Below are positions 2,299-42,614 of a stretch of 43,755 bases of DNA, in pieces. Where the stretch lies: the UHGV virus genome UHGV-0008389. The stretch is one strand, 5' to 3'. The notes beneath the pieces were generated by a model. It did not search any database. It had not been told where the DNA came from and saw only the letters and a program-made list of their open reading frames with translations. Made by a program: the position numbers and the translations under genes. The first letter of the stretch is position 1, and each line of letters opens with the position of its first letter. This DNA is from a virus.

Positions 2299-3054
2299 TT
2301 ATTTACCTATAGCTATCCATCGACAATAAGTTGTATTGCTACCTGATGGCTGGGAACCCATTAAGCTAAAACCAAGACCGGTACTAACGGGTGTAGCAGC
2401 AAAAGAAGGAATTGAATTTACTGAAGATTCCGTATTATCATACGACACAACAATTTGCACGGTTGAGTAGTTGGTAAATGCAATGGGGAAATTTATAAAA
2501 GTGGGAGATCCAATCGCTCCTGCCACTGAAATACCACGTTGAAAGATAGTTCCATCAGGGTAACGACACCAGCCATTTCCACTTGTAAAGCTAGACATGT
2601 CAGGAATTTGATTGGTGCCGGTCCCTACATTTCTTTTAGCCGCTTCTCCTAAACCAAGATATGAAAAAGCATCTTTCCACCCGGCACCATTGCTGTTTGG
2701 ATCAGATAGATTTCCTTCTGTTGTGTTAATGAATATTCTTTCCCCATCGTTCGAGATGAGCATCGCCCCTGACGGATATCCAGAAATCTCCGAAGCAAAT
2801 TCAGAATCAAAAGTATTCAGCGCCCCGCTGCTCGACCATCTACCCAGAGCAGAAAGTTCGTATAAAATTTGGTTCATATCCTGGCCTTTTGGCGGCAAAC
2901 CGCCAGCAGATTTCAGGATCATTGTTATTGGAGGAAACCCCAGTTCATACGATGCTGAGTTATCTCCTGCAGGAGTGGTTGGCAATATTACCCCTCTCTG
3001 TCCATTAACTCCAAATGGCTTAGGTTGTTTTTTAGGTGAGTCAGAACGATTCAT
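2299..3054 (-). CDS. Tail fibre protein
   Basis: 251 aa, Gly/Ser/Thr-rich; position between the baseplate gene and tfa. Confidence 0.65.
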   Translation of the reverse strand: MNRSDSPKKQPKPFGVNGQRGVILPTTPAGDNSASYELGFPPITMILKSAGGLPPKGQDMNQILYELSALGRWSSSGALNTFDSEFASEISGYPSGAMLISNDGERIFINTTEGNLSDPNSNGAGWKDAFSYLGLGEAAKRNVGTGTNQIPDMSSFTSGNGWCRYPDGTIFQRGISVAGAIGSPTFINFPIAFTNYSTVQIVVSYDNTESSVNSIPSFAATPVSTGLGFSLMGSQPSGSNTTYCRWIAIGK

Positions 3055-3056
3055 GC

Positions 3057-3695
3057 TTAATTCCTATAAAATGTGCCATCATTAAACGGATAGGCATCAG
3101 ATGCAAAACCAAAATAATGGCTAATGATTTTACGTATATTTACCAGAACACCACTCGGAACGGGCATCACCTCATAATTCGTGAGAATAGATTCTTCGTA
3201 TGGCGCAAGCTCAAATTCAAACGTTATTCCTATTGTCATATCTCGATAATTTACGCAATATGCTCTCCCTCTTTGATAAAAAAGTATTTTTAGAAATTTA
3301 TTTATATCTGTAATGGTGGCTATGCTTATGTTGGCAAATGCCTTGCAAAAAATCAATGTTCTGTAAGCGTCATCCCCGAGCCTGACACTTGTTGTTTCCT
3401 GCACTCCACCATAAAAAGGAGAATCATTAAATGGTGAAGGATAATCAGTGCTTCCATCGTCAGCCTCACTAAATCCAAATGAGTCACTGTCAATTGGAGC
3501 GACGATGTATCTGCTTATACCTACTATTTTCCCCCACATATCAAGGCCAAAAGATTCACACGTTGTCAAATCCCATACCTTTTTGATGAATTCATCTGTG
3601 AAGTCATCTAGGCTTACCGCCTGATTAAAAGTGTCAATGACAGATAATAGTTTTTTGCTTGCCGAGTATTGGGTAAGAATTGTGTCTTCCCACAT
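3057..3695 (-). CDS. Baseplate/tail protein (Mu gp48 / YmfQ-like, tentative DUF2313)
   Basis: 212 aa; synteny with the J-like baseplate gene upstream and tail fibre downstream. Confidence 0.55.
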   Translation of the reverse strand: MWEDTILTQYSASKKLLSVIDTFNQAVSLDDFTDEFIKKVWDLTTCESFGLDMWGKIVGISRYIVAPIDSDSFGFSEADDGSTDYPSPFNDSPFYGGVQETTSVRLGDDAYRTLIFCKAFANISIATITDINKFLKILFYQRGRAYCVNYRDMTIGITFEFELAPYEESILTNYEVMPVPSGVLVNIRKIISHYFGFASDAYPFNDGTFYRN

Positions 3696-3706
3696 GCTGC
3701 TCCCCC

Positions 3707-4936
3707 CTACGATAATGTAACAGTGATATCTGATTCCTGAATGGTTGGAACCTGGTCTATGCCCATAGTCACAGCGGGTCCGTATAGTGAACCGTCTATG
3801 GAAATTTCAAGAGACAAAATTCCAACTGTATCAGGAGATATTGAAATAACAGGGGCATAGTATTTACCAGCATTTATCGTAGAACCAATTCGTGCCTTTC
3901 CAATACCCTCATACCCTCCATTGAACACGGTGACAACCATTTCCTTTACTTGTTTAGTAATATCACTTGGGGGATTTAGTGAAGAATCGATATTTACCTT
4001 AAAGTAAACCCGCGTAGGTGATGCCTTTTGCCATTGCATTACGTAAGATGGATATGGCGGCATGTAATTAACGTTATCGTAAACAGTGAACGTTGTATCA
4101 CCATTCATATTGGCGCCGGGGTTATAAGTATTGAATATTGACTCAGCAACATCAGTATCAGCCCCGCCATAAACACAAATATAAACAGAATGCGCAAGAA
4201 TCGGGAAATTCGTTGTTCCTTTATTTACTGTTTCTGCAGTTCTGTTTGACCATACGTAAGCATCAAGCACACCATCTGTCGCAAGTAACGCAGCTAATGT
4301 AGACGCATCCTGATTTCTGCTGTTTCTGGCAACTGATTGTCTCCGGCGAGTTTCAAAGGCGATCCGTGATTCAACATCAACACCAACGACCCCAGGGCTG
4401 ATATTATTTACAGCATCCCACCCGGAAACGGCTCGATAAATCTGATTCAGGGAGCCCGCTGCACACGGAATTGGTCCGGTTGTTGTGTTGACAAACTGCA
4501 CATCAACAGAGCCTGATGAGGGTATTACGGCATTGTCAATTGACTGATATATATACCCGCTCGTATCCACAGCGGTACTCCCTGCTGGTATTGTTGTTCC
4601 AACCTGACCAATGCATGTTGCCGTAACAACTGTCCCCTGAGCAGCGATCCGTTCCATAAAGTAAATCCGGCCAATCCCGTCCTGGAATCTGCCAGTTGAA
4701 AAGTCAGGGTTAATTTGATTAAACAAACAAAGAAGCTTGTCGTATTCCTGAGCGATAATTTCAGTATCAGACTGTGCGATCTGCCCTTGCGGTGAACTCA
4801 GTGACTGACTTGCACCACCACCAAGAGCCGTTGACATGTCTGTAAGTCTTCCCGCCAGCACATCCGCTATGTCGGGAACTGAAAGACCGTTTTCAGTGAT
4901 GGTTACATCAGGAACAGCCGTATTTAATATCGTCAT
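3707..4936 (-). CDS. Baseplate J-like protein (Mu gp47-like)
   Basis: 409 aa; size and position in a Mu-like baseplate cluster. Confidence 0.6.
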   Translation of the reverse strand: MTILNTAVPDVTITENGLSVPDIADVLAGRLTDMSTALGGGASQSLSSPQGQIAQSDTEIIAQEYDKLLCLFNQINPDFSTGRFQDGIGRIYFMERIAAQGTVVTATCIGQVGTTIPAGSTAVDTSGYIYQSIDNAVIPSSGSVDVQFVNTTTGPIPCAAGSLNQIYRAVSGWDAVNNISPGVVGVDVESRIAFETRRRQSVARNSRNQDASTLAALLATDGVLDAYVWSNRTAETVNKGTTNFPILAHSVYICVYGGADTDVAESIFNTYNPGANMNGDTTFTVYDNVNYMPPYPSYVMQWQKASPTRVYFKVNIDSSLNPPSDITKQVKEMVVTVFNGGYEGIGKARIGSTINAGKYYAPVISISPDTVGILSLEISIDGSLYGPAVTMGIDQVPTIQESDITVTLS

Positions 4937-36409: not shown

Positions 36410-37414
36410 ATGAATACTATTGAAAATAATGATGTTTATGTGTATATAGGCGATATTCATCGTGATGGTTATCTTGATCTAACCAATAAAATCAAGAAGC
36501 GTAAGTCACAAAATGAATTAAAAAAGAATGTTATCTTCTGTGTTGCTACTTATGGCGGTGATCCTAATGCTGGTTATCGTATAGGTAGGGCTCTCCAGCA
36601 CTATTATGAAACGGTAACACTTTTAGTTGTTGGGCCGTGCAAAAGTGCTGGTACACTAATAGCCATAGCTGCGAATAAACTTGTTATCGGTGACATGGGT
36701 GAGCTCGGGCCATTAGATATCCAACTGAAAAAAAACGATGAAATAGGTGAGATGAGTTCTGGTTTAGCCATTATGACAGCTCTCGATGCACTGAAGGAGC
36801 GCTCTATTTCAGCGTTTAACTCATACCTTGTTCAGATAAAATACGAAAACCAGATAAGCACTAAAATATCTGCTGACATCGCAACCAGACTTACAGAGGC
36901 ATTGATAGCCCCCATGGCTGCTCAGATAGATCCAATAAAACTTGGTGAGCATCAGCGTGCGATGAGCATTGCTATCACTTATGGTCAACGGTTAGCAGAC
37001 AAGCCAAGTAGTCTAAAAGAAGGGGCGTTAAGCAAACTCATCGCTTCGTATCCTTCACATGGATTTGTTATCGACAGAAAAGAAGCCAAGGAACTTTTCA
37101 AGTGTGTTGAATGTCCTAAAGGTATAACAGAAATACTCGATAATTTTTTCTGTGATAAGATTCATAGTGGTGAAATCCCAACGTTTGGAAAACCAAGGGT
37201 GATGGATTTCCCTCTTACTACACAAGATAAAGAGGACAATACTAATGCCGAAGAATCTGCAACCGGAGATGGAAATTCTCAACAAAATGTTGGAAAGCCA
37301 GATCCAAGAAAGTCGCAATCTGGCAAGAAAAGCGGAACAGCACCTGAACGAGATCAAAAAAGAACTGGAGCCGTATCAATTCAACCACCAGATGAACAGC
37401 AACCTAATGCGTGA
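36410..37414 (+). CDS. ClpP/SppA-fold serine protease-like protein occupying the rexA/rexB slot downstream of cI
   Basis: 334 aa, AT-rich; GGAG-type RBS; VIFCVATYGGDPNAGYRIGRAL and VVGPCKSAGTLIAIAA fit the ClpP/S49 pattern (GG..AG..I; G-x-[AC]-x-S-x-G around a candidate nucleophilic Ser); about 70-aa hydrophilic C-terminal tail; same strand and operon position as rexAB in lambda; terminator at 37445-37470. Confidence 0.65.
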   Translation: MNTIENNDVYVYIGDIHRDGYLDLTNKIKKRKSQNELKKNVIFCVATYGGDPNAGYRIGRALQHYYETVTLLVVGPCKSAGTLIAIAANKLVIGDMGELGPLDIQLKKNDEIGEMSSGLAIMTALDALKERSISAFNSYLVQIKYENQISTKISADIATRLTEALIAPMAAQIDPIKLGEHQRAMSIAITYGQRLADKPSSLKEGALSKLIASYPSHGFVIDRKEAKELFKCVECPKGITEILDNFFCDKIHSGEIPTFGKPRVMDFPLTTQDKEDNTNAEESATGDGNSQQNVGKPDPRKSQSGKKSGTAPERDQKRTGAVSIQPPDEQQPNA

Positions 37415-37430
37415 TCTCTTTGCTCTGTAA
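37245..37430 (+). CDS. Possible overlapping small ORF (61 aa, predicted helical) in alternate frame at the 3' end of the protease gene
   Basis: ATG at 37245 preceded by AGAGGA about 9 nt upstream; product MPKNLQPEMEILNKMLESQIQESRNLARKAEQHLNEIKKELEPY... looks helical, while the in-frame protease tail is low-complexity; stop 14 nt before the terminator. Confidence 0.25.
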   Translation: MPKNLQPEMEILNKMLESQIQESRNLARKAEQHLNEIKKELEPYQFNHQMNSNLMRDLFAL

Positions 37431-37444
37431 TTAATTCCTCACAT

Positions 37445-37470
37445 CCCGGCCTCAGCGCCGGGTTTTCTTT
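37445..37470 (+). terminator. Intrinsic terminator ending the cI-protease (immunity) transcript (tIMM-equivalent)
   Basis: CCCGGC ctcagc GCCGGG followed by TTTTCTTT. Confidence 0.7.
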
Positions 37471-37626
37471 GCCTCACGATCGCCCCACCTAAAAACACAT
37501 AACCAATTGTATTTATTTGAAAATTAATAGATACAACTCACTAAACATCACAATTCAGATCTCCCGATCACCTTCCCAATCCACACACCCCTGCAAAAAA
37601 TAAATCTATATAAAAAACATACAGAT

Positions 37627-37696
37627 AACCATCTGCGGTGATGAATTATCTCTGGCGGTGTTGACACGCATACCACTAGCGGTGATACTAAACACA
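37627..37696 (+). promoter_or_regulatory. OL: Left operator OL3-OL2-OL1 and promoter PL
   Basis: AACCATCTGCGGTGATG (OL3), TATCTCTGGCGGTGTTG (OL2), TTGACA -35, TACCACTAGCGGTGATA (OL1), GATACT -10; near-identical to lambda OL/PL as recalled. Confidence 0.9.
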
Positions 37697-37734
37697 TCAG
37701 CAGGACGCTGGAAGCCAAACGGAACAGATTGGCA

Positions 37735-37775
37735 GGCTCTTTAACATTGATGGGATTGTCCCGCCGAAATGCGGG
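37735..37775 (+). promoter_or_regulatory. nutL: nutL-like site (boxA plus boxB hairpin)
   Basis: boxA-like GCTCTTTAACA (37736-37746) followed by hairpin CCCGC cgaaat GCGGG (37760-37775) downstream of PL. Confidence 0.55.
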
Positions 37776-37947
37776 AACCAAAGAGTAGTTGGCTTTGGGG
37801 TGTGGTGAAGGGTTCATGGACGGGAATATGTCGCACGTAAAGCGGCGAGGCCTGCGGGACTATTGCCGAATTGAAGTCGGACGAAGCGGGTCGAAATGGG
37901 TCTCCCACCTACCACACCACCAAAGCTAATCATCTGAGGAACAGAAA

Positions 37948-38067
37948 ATGTTAGACATCATGACCAACCCAATTCTCGGTGGTTTAGTTACCACATTCGC
38001 CATCTGCTTCGGTTTCACTATCTGGTCTGAAGTAGATGACTGGATGTGGGAACGCAAAAACAAATAA
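37948..38067 (+). CDS. Small hydrophobic ORF (39 aa, single predicted TM) between nutL and N
   Basis: ATG at 37948 preceded by GAGGA; product MLDIMTNPILGGLVTTFAICFGFTIWSEVDDWMWERKNK; below the 60-aa cutoff of the supplied ORF track. Confidence 0.35.
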   Translation: MLDIMTNPILGGLVTTFAICFGFTIWSEVDDWMWERKNK

Positions 38068-38107
38068 TCATCGACACACAAGGATGTGTACCTTCCCGGA
38101 GGTCAAC

Positions 38108-38407
38108 ATGACAGTAGTCATTACATATCTTGCTGACGATAACGCCAGAAATCGCCGCAGAGCACGCAGACAGGCTCAACGTGAACAGGCAATGCAAGAG
38201 CAGCGACTGGCGCGAAAAATTGCGCTAAAGCTCTCTGGTTGCGTCAGAGCAGATAAAGCAGCATCACTCGGAAGCCTTCGCTGCAAGAAGGCAGAAGAAG
38301 TCGAGAGTAAACAGAATCGTATTTACTACCGCAAGCCACGCAGTGAAATGGGTGTGACTTGTGTTGGTCGCCAGAAAATGAAATTAGGCAGCAAACCACT
38401 TATTTGA
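38108..38407 (+). CDS. N: N-like antitermination protein
   Basis: Arg-rich motif DDNARNRRRARRQAQREQAM and C-terminus YRKPRSEMGVTCVGRQKMKLGSKPLI resembling the lambda N C-terminus; GGAGG RBS before the ATG at 38108; first PL-operon gene after nutL. Confidence 0.75.
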   Translation: MTVVITYLADDNARNRRRARRQAQREQAMQEQRLARKIALKLSGCVRADKAASLGSLRCKKAEEVESKQNRIYYRKPRSEMGVTCVGRQKMKLGSKPLI

Positions 38408-38467
38408 GGTGAGATATGGAAGCTAAGGCCGAATAGTCTGCCTTTATTTTTGGCATAAACAACAGAG

Positions 38468-38734
38468 GTGAATATGACCGTAGAAAGAATGAAAAGGCCG
38501 TGGAGTGTTATTGGCACTGGATTCAACGATGATGGTGTTTATGTCACGTTTGACGATACAACCATACATCGTGGTGATTTGAGATTGATGGAGGCAGCTC
38601 CTGATTTGCTTGAAGCTCTGCAAGCGATGCTAAACAAGGCATACAAGCAAAGCTGGAATGACCATTATCCTGATGAAGTATCGAAAGCACTGTCAGCAAT
38701 TAGCAAAGCTATTGGTGAAGATTATTACGATTGA
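38468..38734 (+). CDS. Hypothetical early protein
   Basis: 88-aa ORF with GAGGTGA RBS; in the PL operon between N and cIII. Confidence 0.5.
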   Translation: MNMTVERMKRPWSVIGTGFNDDGVYVTFDDTTIHRGDLRLMEAAPDLLEALQAMLNKAYKQSWNDHYPDEVSKALSAISKAIGEDYYD

Positions 38735-39009
38735 GGTTAATGATGAAGTTCAAATTGAACGATGAAGTTAAATGGTCAAGCTCATCAAACGGTGTAACGA
38801 AGGTAAAAATCGGGTTTATCGTCGAGGTGATTCCTCCTGGTGTCAACGTAAAAAAATTCGAACTAGGCCGTCTGCTAGATGCACCTGGCCTTCCGAGGAA
38901 AGAAGAGAGCTATATAGTTTGTGTAGGTCCAAGACCCGGATCTCGTGCCAAGCCAAAATATTACTGGCCGCGAGTTAATAACCTGCGTCGCTTACACGAT
39001 GACAAATAG
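38731..39009 (+). CDS. Hypothetical early protein
   Basis: 92-aa ORF coupled to the upstream gene. Confidence 0.45.
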   Translation: MRLMMKFKLNDEVKWSSSSNGVTKVKIGFIVEVIPPGVNVKKFELGRLLDAPGLPRKEESYIVCVGPRPGSRAKPKYYWPRVNNLRRLHDDK

Positions 39010-39135
39010 AAAGTGAGTATCCTTGTTTTACTTTTTCGCGGCAAACCACTTATTTGAGGTGATATATGGAAGAAGAATTTGAAGAGTTCGAAGAGCATCC
39101 TCAGGATGTGATGGAACAATACCAGGACTATCCGT

Positions 39136-39336
39136 ATGACTACGACTATTGATAAAAATCAATGGTGTGGACAATTCAAGCGATGCAATGGATGCAAGCT
39201 GCAATCGGAATGCATGGTTAAGCCTGAAGAAATGTTTCCTGTAATGGAAGATGGGAAATATGTCGATAAATGGGCAATACGAACGACGGCAATGATTGCC
39301 AGAGAACTTGGTAAACAGAATAACAAGGCTGCCTGA
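39136..39336 (+). CDS. Hypothetical small Cys-rich protein (possible zinc-binding)
   Basis: 66 aa with CGQFKRCNGCKLQSEC (four Cys). Confidence 0.45.
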   Translation: MTTTIDKNQWCGQFKRCNGCKLQSECMVKPEEMFPVMEDGKYVDKWAIRTTAMIARELGKQNNKAA

Positions 39337-39363
39337 TGGTGGCCTTTATTTTTAAGGTGCTAT

Positions 39364-39606
39364 ATGAAAATTAAAACTATGGGCGCAAGCCCATTAAGCG
39401 GTCGTATTTTTCAAGGAACATTAAACACTGAAAAAGGGATGTGGGTAGGAAAGAAAGAAGATGTCACCGAACAAGCGATTAAGGCAGTAACTGAACACCT
39501 GATGATAAAAGACCGGAAATATGCATACGAAACGAATGATGGCAAATGGGTGATAATAATGCATCAACTGGTTGATGAATTACCAGAAGAGTTTATTGCT
39601 GATTAA
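39364..39606 (+). CDS. Hypothetical early protein
   Basis: 80-aa ORF in the PL operon. Confidence 0.45.
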   Translation: MKIKTMGASPLSGRIFQGTLNTEKGMWVGKKEDVTEQAIKAVTEHLMIKDRKYAYETNDGKWVIIMHQLVDELPEEFIAD

Positions 39607-39637
39607 AATTATTTTTGCATAAACAACAGAGGTGAAT

Positions 39638-39772
39638 ATGAACGCAGTTGAATTTACAAAATGGATGGCAGAGCAAGATATCACAGGAGCCGACGAAAAG
39701 GCTGTGTACTACATGGCTATGCTATGGATTCACAAAGCAAAAGAGATTGCAAATGCTCTTGGAGGTGAGTGA
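39638..39772 (+). CDS. Hypothetical small protein (44 aa)
   Basis: ATG at 39638 preceded by the same GAGGTGAATATG linker as the gene at 38468; stop overlaps the next start (TGATG). Confidence 0.35.
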   Translation: MNAVEFTKWMAEQDITGADEKAVYYMAMLWIHKAKEIANALGGE

Positions 39773-39957
39773 TGTGCGAGTTTTATGAAGCAGATATCAA
39801 ACGCCCAGAAATGGCAAGTGATGCGACATTACGTGATTACTTCGCAGCAAAGTTCATGCAGGGAGTTTGTGCAAATCCAGACAGGCTTTATGACAACGAA
39901 GCACTTGCTAAAGAAGCTTATGCGATGGCAGACGCAATGCTCAAAGCTCGCGAATAA
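39769..39957 (+). CDS. Hypothetical early protein
   Basis: 62-aa ORF coupled to the upstream small ORF. Confidence 0.4.
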   Translation: MMCEFYEADIKRPEMASDATLRDYFAAKFMQGVCANPDRLYDNEALAKEAYAMADAMLKARE

Positions 39958-40091
39958 GCACTGTGTATTCATTCTAACGAGTGAATACACGGAGCAATGT
40001 CGCTCGTAACTAAACAGGAGCCGACTTGTTCTGATTATTGGAAATCTTCTTTGCCCTCTAATGTGAGGGCAATTTTTTTGATGGAGGAATT

Positions 40092-40508
40092 ATGGAAATT
40101 ACAGATATTCTGGTTAATCCAGATAATTACGACCAATTCAATATCTCTACTCAATCAGTTGATTTGGGTTGTGCAACTGTCAGCGCATGGCTACTTAATG
40201 GTGAACAGTTGGATAAATGCCTTGATGCACATATGACGGTTAACAGCTTCCTTGCAGAAAAAACACACTGGCAAGATGCTGGAGGGGAATATGCTGGATG
40301 GCTTGAAAGCATGGGATTTGAATATCAATCTGATGAAGGTTGGTGGAGCCTTATAGCTGTAACGCCTGAGACAATAGAATGCTTCGTTAAATACTCAAAC
40401 GACGATGACTATAAACACCAGGTAGATTCTGCGATAGAAAGATATAAAAGAAAATCATTCAGCCACGAAATATCATCAGTTCTTGATTTCATAGAAGTCT
40501 TCAAATAA
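40092..40508 (+). CDS. Hypothetical acidic protein
   Basis: 138 aa, net acidic, Trp-rich (WQDAGGEYAGWLESMGFEYQSDEGWW); early-left region. Confidence 0.5.
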   Translation: MEITDILVNPDNYDQFNISTQSVDLGCATVSAWLLNGEQLDKCLDAHMTVNSFLAEKTHWQDAGGEYAGWLESMGFEYQSDEGWWSLIAVTPETIECFVKYSNDDDYKHQVDSAIERYKRKSFSHEISSVLDFIEVFK

Positions 40509-40589
40509 GCCGCCTGAGCGCGGCTTTACCGCATACCAATAACGCTTCACTCGAGGCGTTTTTCGTTATGTATAAATAAGGAGCACACC

Positions 40590-40730
40590 ATGCAATATGC
40601 CATTGCAGGGTGGCCTGTTGCTGGCTGCCCTTCCGAATCTTTACTTGAACGAATCACCCGTAAATTACGTGACGGATGGAAACGCCTTATCGACATACTT
40701 AATCAGCCAGGAGTCCCAAAAAATGGATAA
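40590..40730 (+). CDS. cIII: cIII (C-terminally shortened relative to lambda)
   Basis: MQYAIAGWPVAGCPSESLLERITRKLRDGWKRLIDILNQPGVPKNG matches lambda CIII as recalled, but ends 8 residues early; GGAG RBS. Confidence 0.85.
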   Translation: MQYAIAGWPVAGCPSESLLERITRKLRDGWKRLIDILNQPGVPKNG

Positions 40731-41029: not shown

Positions 41030-41710
41030 ATGGGAACTGCGACATTAATACTCGGTGAATCTGGCACCGGAAAATCAACCAGCATGAGAAATATCAATCC
41101 AGAGGAAGCAATACTTATAAAACCAATAGGCAAGCCGCTTCCATTTAAATCAAAAGACTGGCTGGCATGGGATGCCAGAGCAAAAAAAGGAACCGTAGTT
41201 ACCACTGACAAATGGGACGTAATAGTTGCCGTAATTAAGCGTGCTCACGAATACGGGAAAAGAATCGTTATTGTTGATGACTTCCAGTATGTGATGAGCA
41301 ATGAGTTTATGCGCCGCTCAGAAGAAAAATCGTTTGATAAATTCACTGAGATAGGCCGCCACGCATGGGAGGTGATTAAGGCTGCACAGGATGCACCTGA
41401 TGACCTGAGAGTCTATTTTCTTGCGCACACCGAAGAAACCCCTATGGGGCGTGTGAAAATGAAGACTATCGGCAAAATGCTGGACGAGAAAATCACTGTC
41501 GAAGGCATGTTTACTATAGTTCTTCGCACCCTTACCCGCGATGACCAGTTCTTTTTCACCACGAAAAACAACGGTGCAGACACTGTTAAATCCCCAATGG
41601 GAATGTTTGATTCTAATGAGATTGATAACGATCTCTCTTTCGTCGATGCCACTGTTTGTGATTACTACGGCATCAATAATGTTCATCAAATTAAGGAAAA
41701 CGCCGCATGA
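41030..41710 (+). CDS. Sak4-like RecA-core ATPase (AAA_24 family) of a recombination module
   Basis: 226 aa; Walker A LGESGTGKST; Walker B-like IVIVDDFQ; followed by an SSB-like gene. Confidence 0.75.
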   Translation: MGTATLILGESGTGKSTSMRNINPEEAILIKPIGKPLPFKSKDWLAWDARAKKGTVVTTDKWDVIVAVIKRAHEYGKRIVIVDDFQYVMSNEFMRRSEEKSFDKFTEIGRHAWEVIKAAQDAPDDLRVYFLAHTEETPMGRVKMKTIGKMLDEKITVEGMFTIVLRTLTRDDQFFFTTKNNGADTVKSPMGMFDSNEIDNDLSFVDATVCDYYGINNVHQIKENAA

Positions 41711-42294
41711 GCAACGTGATTTTTACTTATAACGAAGAAGCAGCACTGACCGCAGGGCAAGGTGGTTTTATTAACGAAACTGGTGCTCATATCATTACCA
41801 TTACTGAAGCAGAACTAAAGCAATCAGAAAAAGGAGCCAAATTTATTGAGTTTTCTGGCGAATCTGACGACGGACGTAAAATCCAATATCTTAGCGTCTG
41901 TGTTCAGAAAAATGACGGAACGGAAAACAAATTTGGCGCAAATGTCGTTCACGCCATGATGGGGTGTGCCGGGATTGGACAATTAACGCAACATATGGTT
42001 TCCGCCAGTAAATTTGTTGCTCCTGAGTTTCATGGAAAGAAAATCGGGTTAGTGCTCCAGAAAGTATTAACCACAAACAAAAAGACTGGCGCAGACAGCT
42101 ACCAGATGGAAATACGCATCCCGTTTATTGCACAAACAGGTCAAACCCTTAAAGAAAAGGCGGAAGGCAAGCAACCAGAAACTATCGCCAACATGGTTGC
42201 CAGCCTCAAAGATAAAGACAATCGCTCTAAAAACGTAAGCCAGAATCATGCAGATGATTATGGTTACAGCCAGAACGATTACCCTCCTTTCTGA
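41707..42294 (+). CDS. DUF669-like ssDNA-binding protein with SSB-type acidic C-terminal tail
   Basis: 195 aa; C-terminal DDYGYSQNDYPPF resembles the SSB tail (D-D-D-I-P-F type); coupled to the Sak4-like gene. Confidence 0.55.
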   Translation: MSNVIFTYNEEAALTAGQGGFINETGAHIITITEAELKQSEKGAKFIEFSGESDDGRKIQYLSVCVQKNDGTENKFGANVVHAMMGCAGIGQLTQHMVSASKFVAPEFHGKKIGLVLQKVLTTNKKTGADSYQMEIRIPFIAQTGQTLKEKAEGKQPETIANMVASLKDKDNRSKNVSQNHADDYGYSQNDYPPF

Positions 42295-42317
42295 TTATTG
42301 AAAATAAGGCTCCCATT

Positions 42318-42614
42318 ATGCCAGCGCCTCTGTATGGTGCGGATGACCCGCGCAATTGCTCCGGTAGCTCCAAGGCGGAGGTGCTGGAAAATATCAAAAA
42401 CAATTTCGACGCGTTTCTTGCTCTGACACCAGAAACAAAAGCAGAACGGATGTACCGACGCGATATACAACTCGCGCTAAAACAGGAGAAGGACCGAACA
42501 AACGAAACAGCAATGAGACCGTTGCGAAAAGCGACAATAGACAAATTCCCTGAATATATCGACCCGCGCCTGCGTAATTACCGATCACGCTATGGCGCTA
42601 TCAGTAATGACTGA
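42318..42614 (+). CDS. Hypothetical protein
   Basis: 98-aa ORF in the early-left operon. Confidence 0.45.

Follow-up and report, generated by a model that had tools for sequence, protein, structure and literature searches.

The early leftward (pL) operon of UHGV virus genome UHGV-0008389 contains two pairs of short direct repeats, here named A and B, set among its small accessory genes. We analysed 43,755 nt of this mosaic lambdoid prophage (the window; all coordinates are window positions). The repeats probably represent two intergenic linkers (boundary sequences) of the lambdoid pL operon, related to each other and each present in duplicate, at which gene cassettes are exchanged. The operon runs on the + strand, as do all features below unless stated. 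The prophage has HK620 and phage 21 among its relatives; the early region is patchwise 94–96% identical to HK620, N7, HK97 and HK140. Its order is N, the first copy of A (A1), a six-codon remnant, a hairpin, the first copy of B (B1), orf86, orf88, the second copy of A (A2), orf28, ral, a hairpin, orf80, the second copy of B (B2), orf44, orf61 and a homologue of the boundary sequence bsq4 with a tL2a-like terminator.

The first-pass annotation of this region had reported that the 3′ end of N recurs at about 39036–39070 and that a second motif at about 38441–38468 recurs at about 39611–39640. Both pairs were confirmed with a repeat finder and proved slightly longer than noted. Repeat A, with sequence GC(A/G)GCAAACCACTTATTTGAGGTGA(G/T)ATATGGAAG, spans 35 nt at 38388–38422 and 39038–39072 with 2 mismatches (33/35 identical, 94%). 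Repeat B, with sequence TTTT(G/T)GCATAAACAACAGAGGTGAATATGA, spans 36 nt at 38448–38483 and 39612–39647 with 3 mismatches (33/36 identical, 92%), and has an exact 25-mer core (38453–38477 and 39617–39641). The copies are interleaved along the window, in the order A1 B1 A2 B2, and not nested. With up to 3 mismatches allowed, the whole window holds exactly two matches to the 32-nt A core and two to the 25-nt B core, and mismatch-tolerant searches of the window found no additional copy of either. Neither core was matched in 100 dinucleotide-preserving shuffles of the window, so the repeats are far beyond chance. The same region holds a shorter repeat, GCCTTTATTTTT, at 38440 and 39342, and a 16-nt family, TTTGAGGTGAnATATG, with four copies (38403, 39053, 39351 and 39759; 81–100% identity).

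Copy A1 begins inside a gene. The first 20 nt of A1 are the final six codons of N and its stop (…G S K P L I and stop; GGC AGC AAA CCA CTT ATT TGA), this TGA is embedded in the strong Shine-Dalgarno sequence GAGGTGA (TTTGAGGTGA), and an ATG follows 4 nt on, then GAA G. A2 carries the same N tail in the gap that runs from the orf88 stop (39009) to the orf28 start (39066), then the Shine-Dalgarno sequence and the orf28 ATG. The second copy had been described as lying in non-coding context, which holds for its left part, in the 39009–39066 gap, but orf28 starts at the ATG of A2. Repeat B opens with the last part of a T-run; a C/A-rich leader (GGCATAAACAACA) follows, then GAGGTGA, the Shine-Dalgarno sequence also found in A, and an ATG, which is that of orf86 in B1 and that of orf44 in B2. 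The window as a whole has four GAGGTGA-N(3-7)-ATG modules where 0.43 would be expected, and three lie inside 38406–39774; both B copies are two more such modules, with a 2-nt spacer, for a total of five of six window modules within 38406–39774. Within the window the likeness of A to B is confined to this ribosome-binding module, GAGGTGA(n)ATATG.

That the copies lack common descent and arose by chance, or by convergence on a strong ribosome-binding site, is very improbable. GAGGTGA is the complement of the 16S rRNA 3′ end, and the four-copy 16-nt family could indeed be convergent. The identity within A and B, however, reaches 17–20 nt upstream of the Shine-Dalgarno sequence, no shuffle matched either core, and identical linkers stand in hundreds of related loci, which refutes this account for both A and B.

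Presence or absence of the bracketed genes was compared among related prophages and phages, and the variation falls exactly at the repeats (phage 21, CUS-3, Sf101, EC28 and SE16). Phage 21 and CUS-3 have the order N-A-orf28-ral with a single A, so the window has 650 extra bp between A1 and A2. Escherichia coli EC28 has N-A-(87-aa gene)-hairpin-B-orf86, and in E. coli MS6192 a variant N is joined directly to orf88-A-orf28-ral. In phage 21 and Sf6 the hairpin and T-run of ral or of gene 34 lead straight to GGCATAAA(C/T)AA(C/G)AGA-ATAAACACT-bsq4. The left half of B ends 9 nt upstream of the annotated bsq4 in Sf6, and cassettes are inserted directly after …AACAGA. In Sf101 a homologue of orf86 follows ral, with a joint made of GCCTTTATTTTT and B, and Salmonella phage SE16 has A-orf28-ral-orf80-B at 90% identity, then a different gene. 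The first-pass annotation had proposed that the repeats bracket two small open reading frames (ORFs), at 38468–39009 and 39136–39606, as gene cassettes inserted or duplicated at conserved linkers. Genes are indeed bracketed, but each of these intervals holds two: orf86 (38474–38734) and orf88 (38743–39009) in the first, ral (39136–39336) and the DUF7446 gene orf80 (39364–39606) in the second. Insertion is supported by the related phages and loci, but nothing is duplicated except the linkers.

A broader survey covered 262 related IMG/VR loci. The A core was found in at least 120 loci, with at least 10 upstream classes (including the N 3′ end, the Sf6 gene-36 type, orf88 and a 20-codon ORF, MNYLEF…) and at least six downstream genes (including orf28, MEALVVERSEDGYW…, MEEQANKILV… and MDKKIK…); at least 21 combinations are occupied. 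The B core was found in 27 loci, with at least eight upstream contexts and five downstream genes, orf86 and orf44 among them; it had no match among GTDB species representatives, an uninformative result as that set holds one genome per species. Two copies of A occur in only one contig (L081/L231) among the 262 loci, and two copies of B in none.

Two samples were selected independently of the linkers. The first comprises 77 loci anchored on Ral, representing 60 unique sequences. Their agreement with the window is about 1.0 across 39057–39353 and drops under 0.3 to the left of 39038 and to about 0.1 on the right-hand side of 39353; the contexts fall into 10 left classes and 10 right classes, and 52 of the 77 loci lead straight into bsq4. 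About 23% of the unique sequences deviate from the long A allele of the window between 39038 and 39056. In the second sample, of 34 loci anchored on orf88, all 10 close orf88 homologues are followed by TTTTACTTTTTCGC(A/G)GCAAACCACTTATTTGAGGTGA and then by one of five different genes. A single-nucleotide polymorphism (SNP) inside A, GAGGTGA(G/T)ATATG, occurs as G and as T alongside each major upstream class and each major downstream gene. It thus assorts with both flanks, which points to exchange on either side of the SNP, that is, within the linker or, less parsimoniously, to recurrent mutation.

A and B appear to be related variants of one family of junction elements, a grouping that rests on hybrid alleles in other phages and not on the window. 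Two IMG/VR loci (L150 and L250) have a hybrid linker, GGCAGCAAGCCAC joined to AGAGGTGA(A/T)ATATG, which is the left half of A followed by the right half of B; that of L150 is one of the short-allele variants among the Ral-anchored sequences that deviate from the long A allele. In distant relatives of orf88 (L248 and L249) a hairpin, GGCCGCATAGTCGGCC, and T-run are followed directly by an A-like linker, and in orf88 relatives with 65% protein identity only the hairpin, the T-run and …ACAGAGG… are retained.

A third linker, C (AGATTATTACGATTGAGGTTAATGATGAAG, 38719–38748), joins orf86 to orf88. Elsewhere it mostly joins a variant N 3′ end to orf88: it consists of another N allele's tail (…PAYYD and stop) with a Shine-Dalgarno sequence and ATG, attached here to orf86 (…EDYYD and stop). 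The variant N allele is found in MS6192 and nine IMG/VR loci. Similarly, orf44 and the Sf101 homologue of orf86 have a common tail (…ALGGE and stop) and a common joint to orf61 (39755–39775 in the window). Because the joints extend into the ends of coding sequences, exchange at them gives rise to chimeric C-termini, and mosaic joints come to lie a few codons inside genes.

In the mechanism that we favour, a linker would be a working joint between two small genes. Many unrelated accessory genes stand behind the same 25–35 nt, which makes the linkers islands of homology where the surrounding DNA is unrelated. Co-resident phages and prophages would recombine at these islands, and single-gene cassettes would be exchanged, added or removed while their translation signals stay joined. 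The crossovers would be homologous and lie inside the linkers, to judge from the sequence comparisons above. The enzyme may be host RecA or a phage annealase; the phage of the window encodes a Sak4-like one together with SSB and Abc2. N-modified RNA polymerase reads through terminators, and N antitermination would let transcription pass the cassette hairpins, making cassettes stackable. We infer that identity islands of 22–35 bp can serve as substrates of RecA or of an annealase. The minimal efficient pairing segment is 23–27 bp for Red-beta and 31–34 bp for RecA (PMC3945230), and the Sak4 of HK620 is an ATP-dependent annealase that tolerates up to 20% divergence in oligonucleotide annealing in vitro (PMC5928155).

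The present arrangement shows joins of another kind as well. IMG/VR contig L081 matches the window through N and A1 (37695–38423 equals 2493–3221 of its reverse complement, 98.5%) and again from 38421 to 39353 (3522–4453, 98.6%) after 300 additional nt. These 300 nt are the body of a 106-aa gene (MEALVV…, MEALVVERSEDGYW…; phrog_1372, unknown function) that is intact in the contig. In the window there is left a mini-ORF at 38416–38436, MEAKAE and stop (ATG GAA GC/T AAG GCC GAA TAG), as an in-frame remnant; the stretch between A1 and B1 that might be taken for non-coding thus consists of this six-codon remnant, left by a deleted gene, and of a degenerate hairpin. The joint of the 300-nt deletion, at 38423/38424, has no microhomology. 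The exact A1/B1 junction, TATGGAAGCTAAGGCCGAATAG, was found neither in IMG/VR nor in GTDB species representatives, and none of 5,426 complete E. coli genomes matched it contiguously. At the left edge of A2 (~39037) the orf88 flank is fused, with no homology, to the final 14 nt of N. Illegitimate events, namely this left edge and the 300-nt deletion, clearly contributed.

The simplest account of the interleaved order A1-B1-A2-B2 is that two alternative fillings of the interval from N to bsq4 were joined head to tail. The first filling would be A-gene-hairpin-B-orf86-orf88 and the second A-orf28-ral-hairpin-orf80-B-orf44-orf61, and the gene behind A1 would have been lost afterwards by the 300-nt in-frame deletion. 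The head-to-tail join presumably lies between the 3′ flank of orf88 and the N tail. The join of this flank to the N tail is common to all close orf88 homologues; it is therefore old and has since been reassorted.

Several points weigh against exchange by homologous crossover within the linkers. Two are the homology-free left edge of A2 and the deletion behind A1, just described. The longest perfect match between the window copies is 22 nt for A and 25 nt for B, which does not exceed the minimal pairing lengths in the literature. The linkers of SE16 show no greater conservation than the genes beside them, and the Shine-Dalgarno sequence in that phage is even mutated; there is hence no sign of selection on the linker sequence itself. 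The hairpin before B1 is degenerate and B2 has none. Most of the IMG/VR loci are E. coli prophages, and the loci lack phylogenetic independence. Finally, the comparative patterns could also come from rare illegitimate joins that were selected for preserved expression and then spread.

Carried to its end, this last point becomes a rival account in which all joins are illegitimate, as in the view of Hendrix and Juhala, and the shared 25–35 nt are remnants of old neighbours that were kept for the ribosome-binding site and guided no recombination. The two homology-free joins and the SE16 comparison favour it, as does linker C, the tail of another N allele attached to orf86, and traces of flanking homology were found in only about 30% of mosaics (De Paepe et al., PMC3945230). 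We nevertheless hold it to be unlikely as a full explanation: the same linker has at least 10 upstream and at least six downstream partners, and independent illegitimate events would not keep reusing the same nucleotides; moreover, the SNP within A assorts with both flanks, and hybrid A/B alleles exist.

Terminator-like hairpins accompany the linkers. A hairpin with T-run (AAGGCCGAATAGTCTGCCTTTATTTTT) lies before B1 at 38425–38451 as a degenerate copy that folds no better than shuffles (z 0.04). The hairpin at the end of ral, found by a terminator scan at 39325–39353 (9 bp and T-run), is a good terminator candidate (−15.3 kcal/mol, z −2.4 against shuffles) and forms the right edge of the conserved orf28-ral cassette. 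A hairpin and T-run precede B in 24 of the 27 IMG/VR B loci, and hairpins homologous to the one before B1 occur in 20 contexts. Base pairing of the 7-bp stem, scored in 22 contexts, holds in 93.8% of cells (84.8% for shuffles); five of the seven pairs change on both sides, mostly through replacement of the whole hairpin. Such hairpins would be expected to stop transcription.

Selection on such signals offers another explanation, in which the linkers are conserved first of all as RNA elements (N-suppressible terminator, C/A-rich enhancer, Shine-Dalgarno sequence and stop/start coupling) and the shuffling is incidental. Hairpin and T-run are retained despite different stem sequences (L130 and L253), the 65%-identical orf88 relatives retain nothing but hairpin, T-run and ACAGAGG, the ral hairpin folds significantly better than shuffles, and the similarity of A to B in the window is that of a ribosome-binding module. 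Function cannot, however, account for an identity of 33/35 that includes 17 nt of the dead N 3′ end in A2, nor does it fit the lack of a hairpin at B2 and its degeneration at B1. Rfam searched at E <= 1 over 37300–40700 had no match at the linkers or hairpins, its sole match being the cIII thermoregulator. Conservation as RNA signals has a low probability as the primary cause, and it is compatible with linker-mediated exchange rather than exclusive of it.

Some further signals were considered. The linker leaders are C/A-rich at 38453–38465 (ATAAACAACA) and 39041–39050 (GCAAACCAC); such leaders resemble translational enhancers and small RNA (sRNA) target sites of E. coli mRNAs. A hairpin in A that would sequester the Shine-Dalgarno sequence (CACUU/AGGUG) and allow translational coupling was rejected, as it folds like shuffles (z −0.56 and 0.15). 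An antisense promoter over B2 (39636–39608, 9/12 match) was set aside because promoter-like sites are not above shuffles. The Pas sRNAs described in a preprint were dismissed as a parallel, those sRNAs being located in the late region.

It is scarcely conceivable that the repeats are target-site duplications, or the ends of a transposable or site-specific element such as an insertion sequence, an integron cassette or a homing element. Direct repeats do flank insertions relative to phage 21. Against this, repeats of 35–36 nt are far longer than target-site duplications and the pairs are interleaved; the repeat finder found no terminal inverted repeats at the cassette ends; Pfam and PHROGs revealed no transposase, integron integrase or homing endonuclease among the bracketed ORFs; and the content between the copies varies between phages. 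The defining features of transposons and integron cassettes are thus absent here.

Short conserved boundary sequences as foci of homologous recombination are credited to Susskind and Botstein (1978) and, for HK620, to Clark et al. (2001) in PMC3029335. The lambdoid boundary sequences (bsq1-7) are, like A and B, short, placed at module borders of the early ("metabolic") region, and common to phages with unrelated flanks. A and B share with them the position at gene borders (here between N and the bsq4 homologue), the unrelated flanks and the independent assortment of those flanks. The Sf6 and CUS-3 GenBank records carry annotations of bsq4 and bsq5; neither A nor B is annotated as a bsq in the records of Sf6, CUS-3 and HK620. 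A and B differ from the annotated boundary sequences in resolving single genes inside one module (bsq5 to bsq4), and they are translation joints of 25–35 nt, whereas bsq4 has 113 nt and bsq5 502 nt. The locus is a clear, fine-scale instance of the linker or boundary-sequence phenomenon proposed decades ago, and no new kind of system.

In function, the nearest system on record is a mobile regulatory cassette of T4-type phages, the promoter-early stem-loop or PeSL (Arbiol et al., 2010), an element of ~100 bp with stop codon, promoter, stem-loop, Shine-Dalgarno sequence and ATG (PMC2839356). The genes beside PeSLs, in hyperplastic regions, have no known function; close relatives differ at these elements by insertions, deletions and replacements, and formation of mini-circles has been demonstrated (PMC2839356). 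Like A and B, a PeSL starts at the upstream stop codon and extends as far as the downstream Shine-Dalgarno sequence and ATG, with a stem-loop in the intergenic element. It has a strong sigma-70 early promoter, whereas a promoter scan found no promoter-like + strand site in A or B (the region has 6 in total, against 6.8 in shuffles), and transcription here comes from pL with N antitermination.

In the relaxed homologous recombination described by De Paepe et al. (2014), mosaics between lambdoid phages and defective prophages arise by recombinase-dependent exchange at short or diverged homologies, and annealases outperform RecA (PMC3945230). The window encodes a Sak4-type annealase module, but the homologies in that work are hundreds of bp long against 22–35 bp here, which is the bottom of the range for efficient pairing. 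Morons (Juhala/Hendrix) are, like the cassettes here, single accessory genes between conserved lambdoid genes, often with a terminator. According to the summary given in PMC2839356, morons have their own promoter, often an opposite orientation, and no conserved flanks; the cassettes here are co-oriented with pL, had no promoter in the scan, and share conserved joints.

We also entertain a bolder reading, as a tentative possibility only, in which A, B, linker C and the ral-hairpin joint are diverged copies of one promoter-less element of ~50–60 nt (hairpin, T-run, C/A-rich leader, Shine-Dalgarno sequence and ATG). This element would be a counterpart of the PeSL that actively mobilises single genes, for example as mini-circles through Sak4, Red-beta or Erf annealases. 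If so, the interval from N to bsq4 would be an integron-like hyperplastic slot in which unlimited stacking is tolerated, since N reads through every cassette terminator.

The genes of the operon are mostly of families of unknown function. N (38108–38407), a 99-aa antiterminator of the phage-21/CUS-3 type (phrog_271, E 1e-36), is 97.9% identical in nucleotide sequence to the N of CUS-3 and 97.7% identical to the 3′ 217 nt of phage 21 N; its match to Pfam N_peptide is weak and under the family cut-off. Orf86 (38474–38734, phrog_1273) is one of at least five alternative genes that sit directly behind B. Orf88 (38743–39009) belongs to phrog_11941 and orf28 (28 aa, 39066–39152) to phrog_16060, both again families of unknown function. 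Ral (39136–39336) is the antirestriction protein (PF11058, E 1.6e-48; phrog_1055). Orf80 (39364–39606; DUF7446, phrog_1578) has TTATTTTT on each side, and its insertion point is inside the T-run that follows the ral hairpin. Orf44 (39638–39772; phrog_24660, unknown function) is the most frequent gene behind B in IMG/VR, and its joint to orf61 (39772–39957; phrog_2201, unknown function) is GGAGGTGAGTGATG. Pfam had no match for orf86, orf88, orf28, orf44, orf61 or the deleted 106-aa gene. The operon section closes with the bsq4 homologue (39958–40078), 121 nt that are 92.8% identical to the Sf6 feature annotated "bsq4; boundary sequence"; it ends in a tL2a-like intrinsic terminator at 40051–40078 (terminator scan and fold).

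The orf28 peptide, MEEEFEEFEEHPQDVMEQYQDYPYDYDY, is extremely acidic, its gene overlaps the ral start by 17 nt, and it is co-inherited with ral in 77 of 77 Ral-anchored loci; its product may be a functional partner of the antirestriction protein Ral. The start of the bsq4 homologue (39958–39995) forms a conserved, imperfect hairpin with 17-nt arms (82% complementary) and a 4-nt loop, which is also present in phage 21, Sf6 and CUS-3.

A promoter-like sequence, TTGACA-17-GATACT, was found by the promoter scan at 37661–37689, and the pL/nutL region is separated from N by a 39-aa hydrophobic ORF (37948–38067, +; phrog_7482, E 8e-25). The pL-like promoter is closely preceded by a 334-aa ORF (36410–37462, +; phrog_21683) with weak ClpP/S49-protease-like matches, followed by a strong GC-rich terminator (37445–37462); its position suggests a lysogeny-expressed accessory or defence gene. 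Downstream, the cIII thermoregulator RF01804 (40577–40635, +; 88.5 bits, E 1.6e-21) overlaps the start of cIII (40590–40730; 46 aa, phrog_550). The HK620-like recombination module (41030–42614, +) consists of the Sak4-like single-stranded DNA annealase (41030–41710; phrog_2872, E 4e-108), SSB (41707–42294) and the anti-RecBCD protein Abc2 (42318–42614).

For annotation, the joints explain several otherwise puzzling features, namely a dead copy of the N 3′ end, a six-codon mini-ORF and the chimeric C-termini of small genes. Each linker is present twice beside the phage's own Sak4, SSB and Abc2 genes, and linker-mediated deletion (650 bp for A and 1164 bp for B) or circle formation would be directly measurable here. 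The old debate on phage mosaicism sets homologous exchange at conserved linkers against random illegitimate joins on which selection then acts. Traces of both can be read in this compact natural example: combinatorial, linker-bounded cassettes and SNP assortment on the one hand, and at least two homology-free joins on the other.

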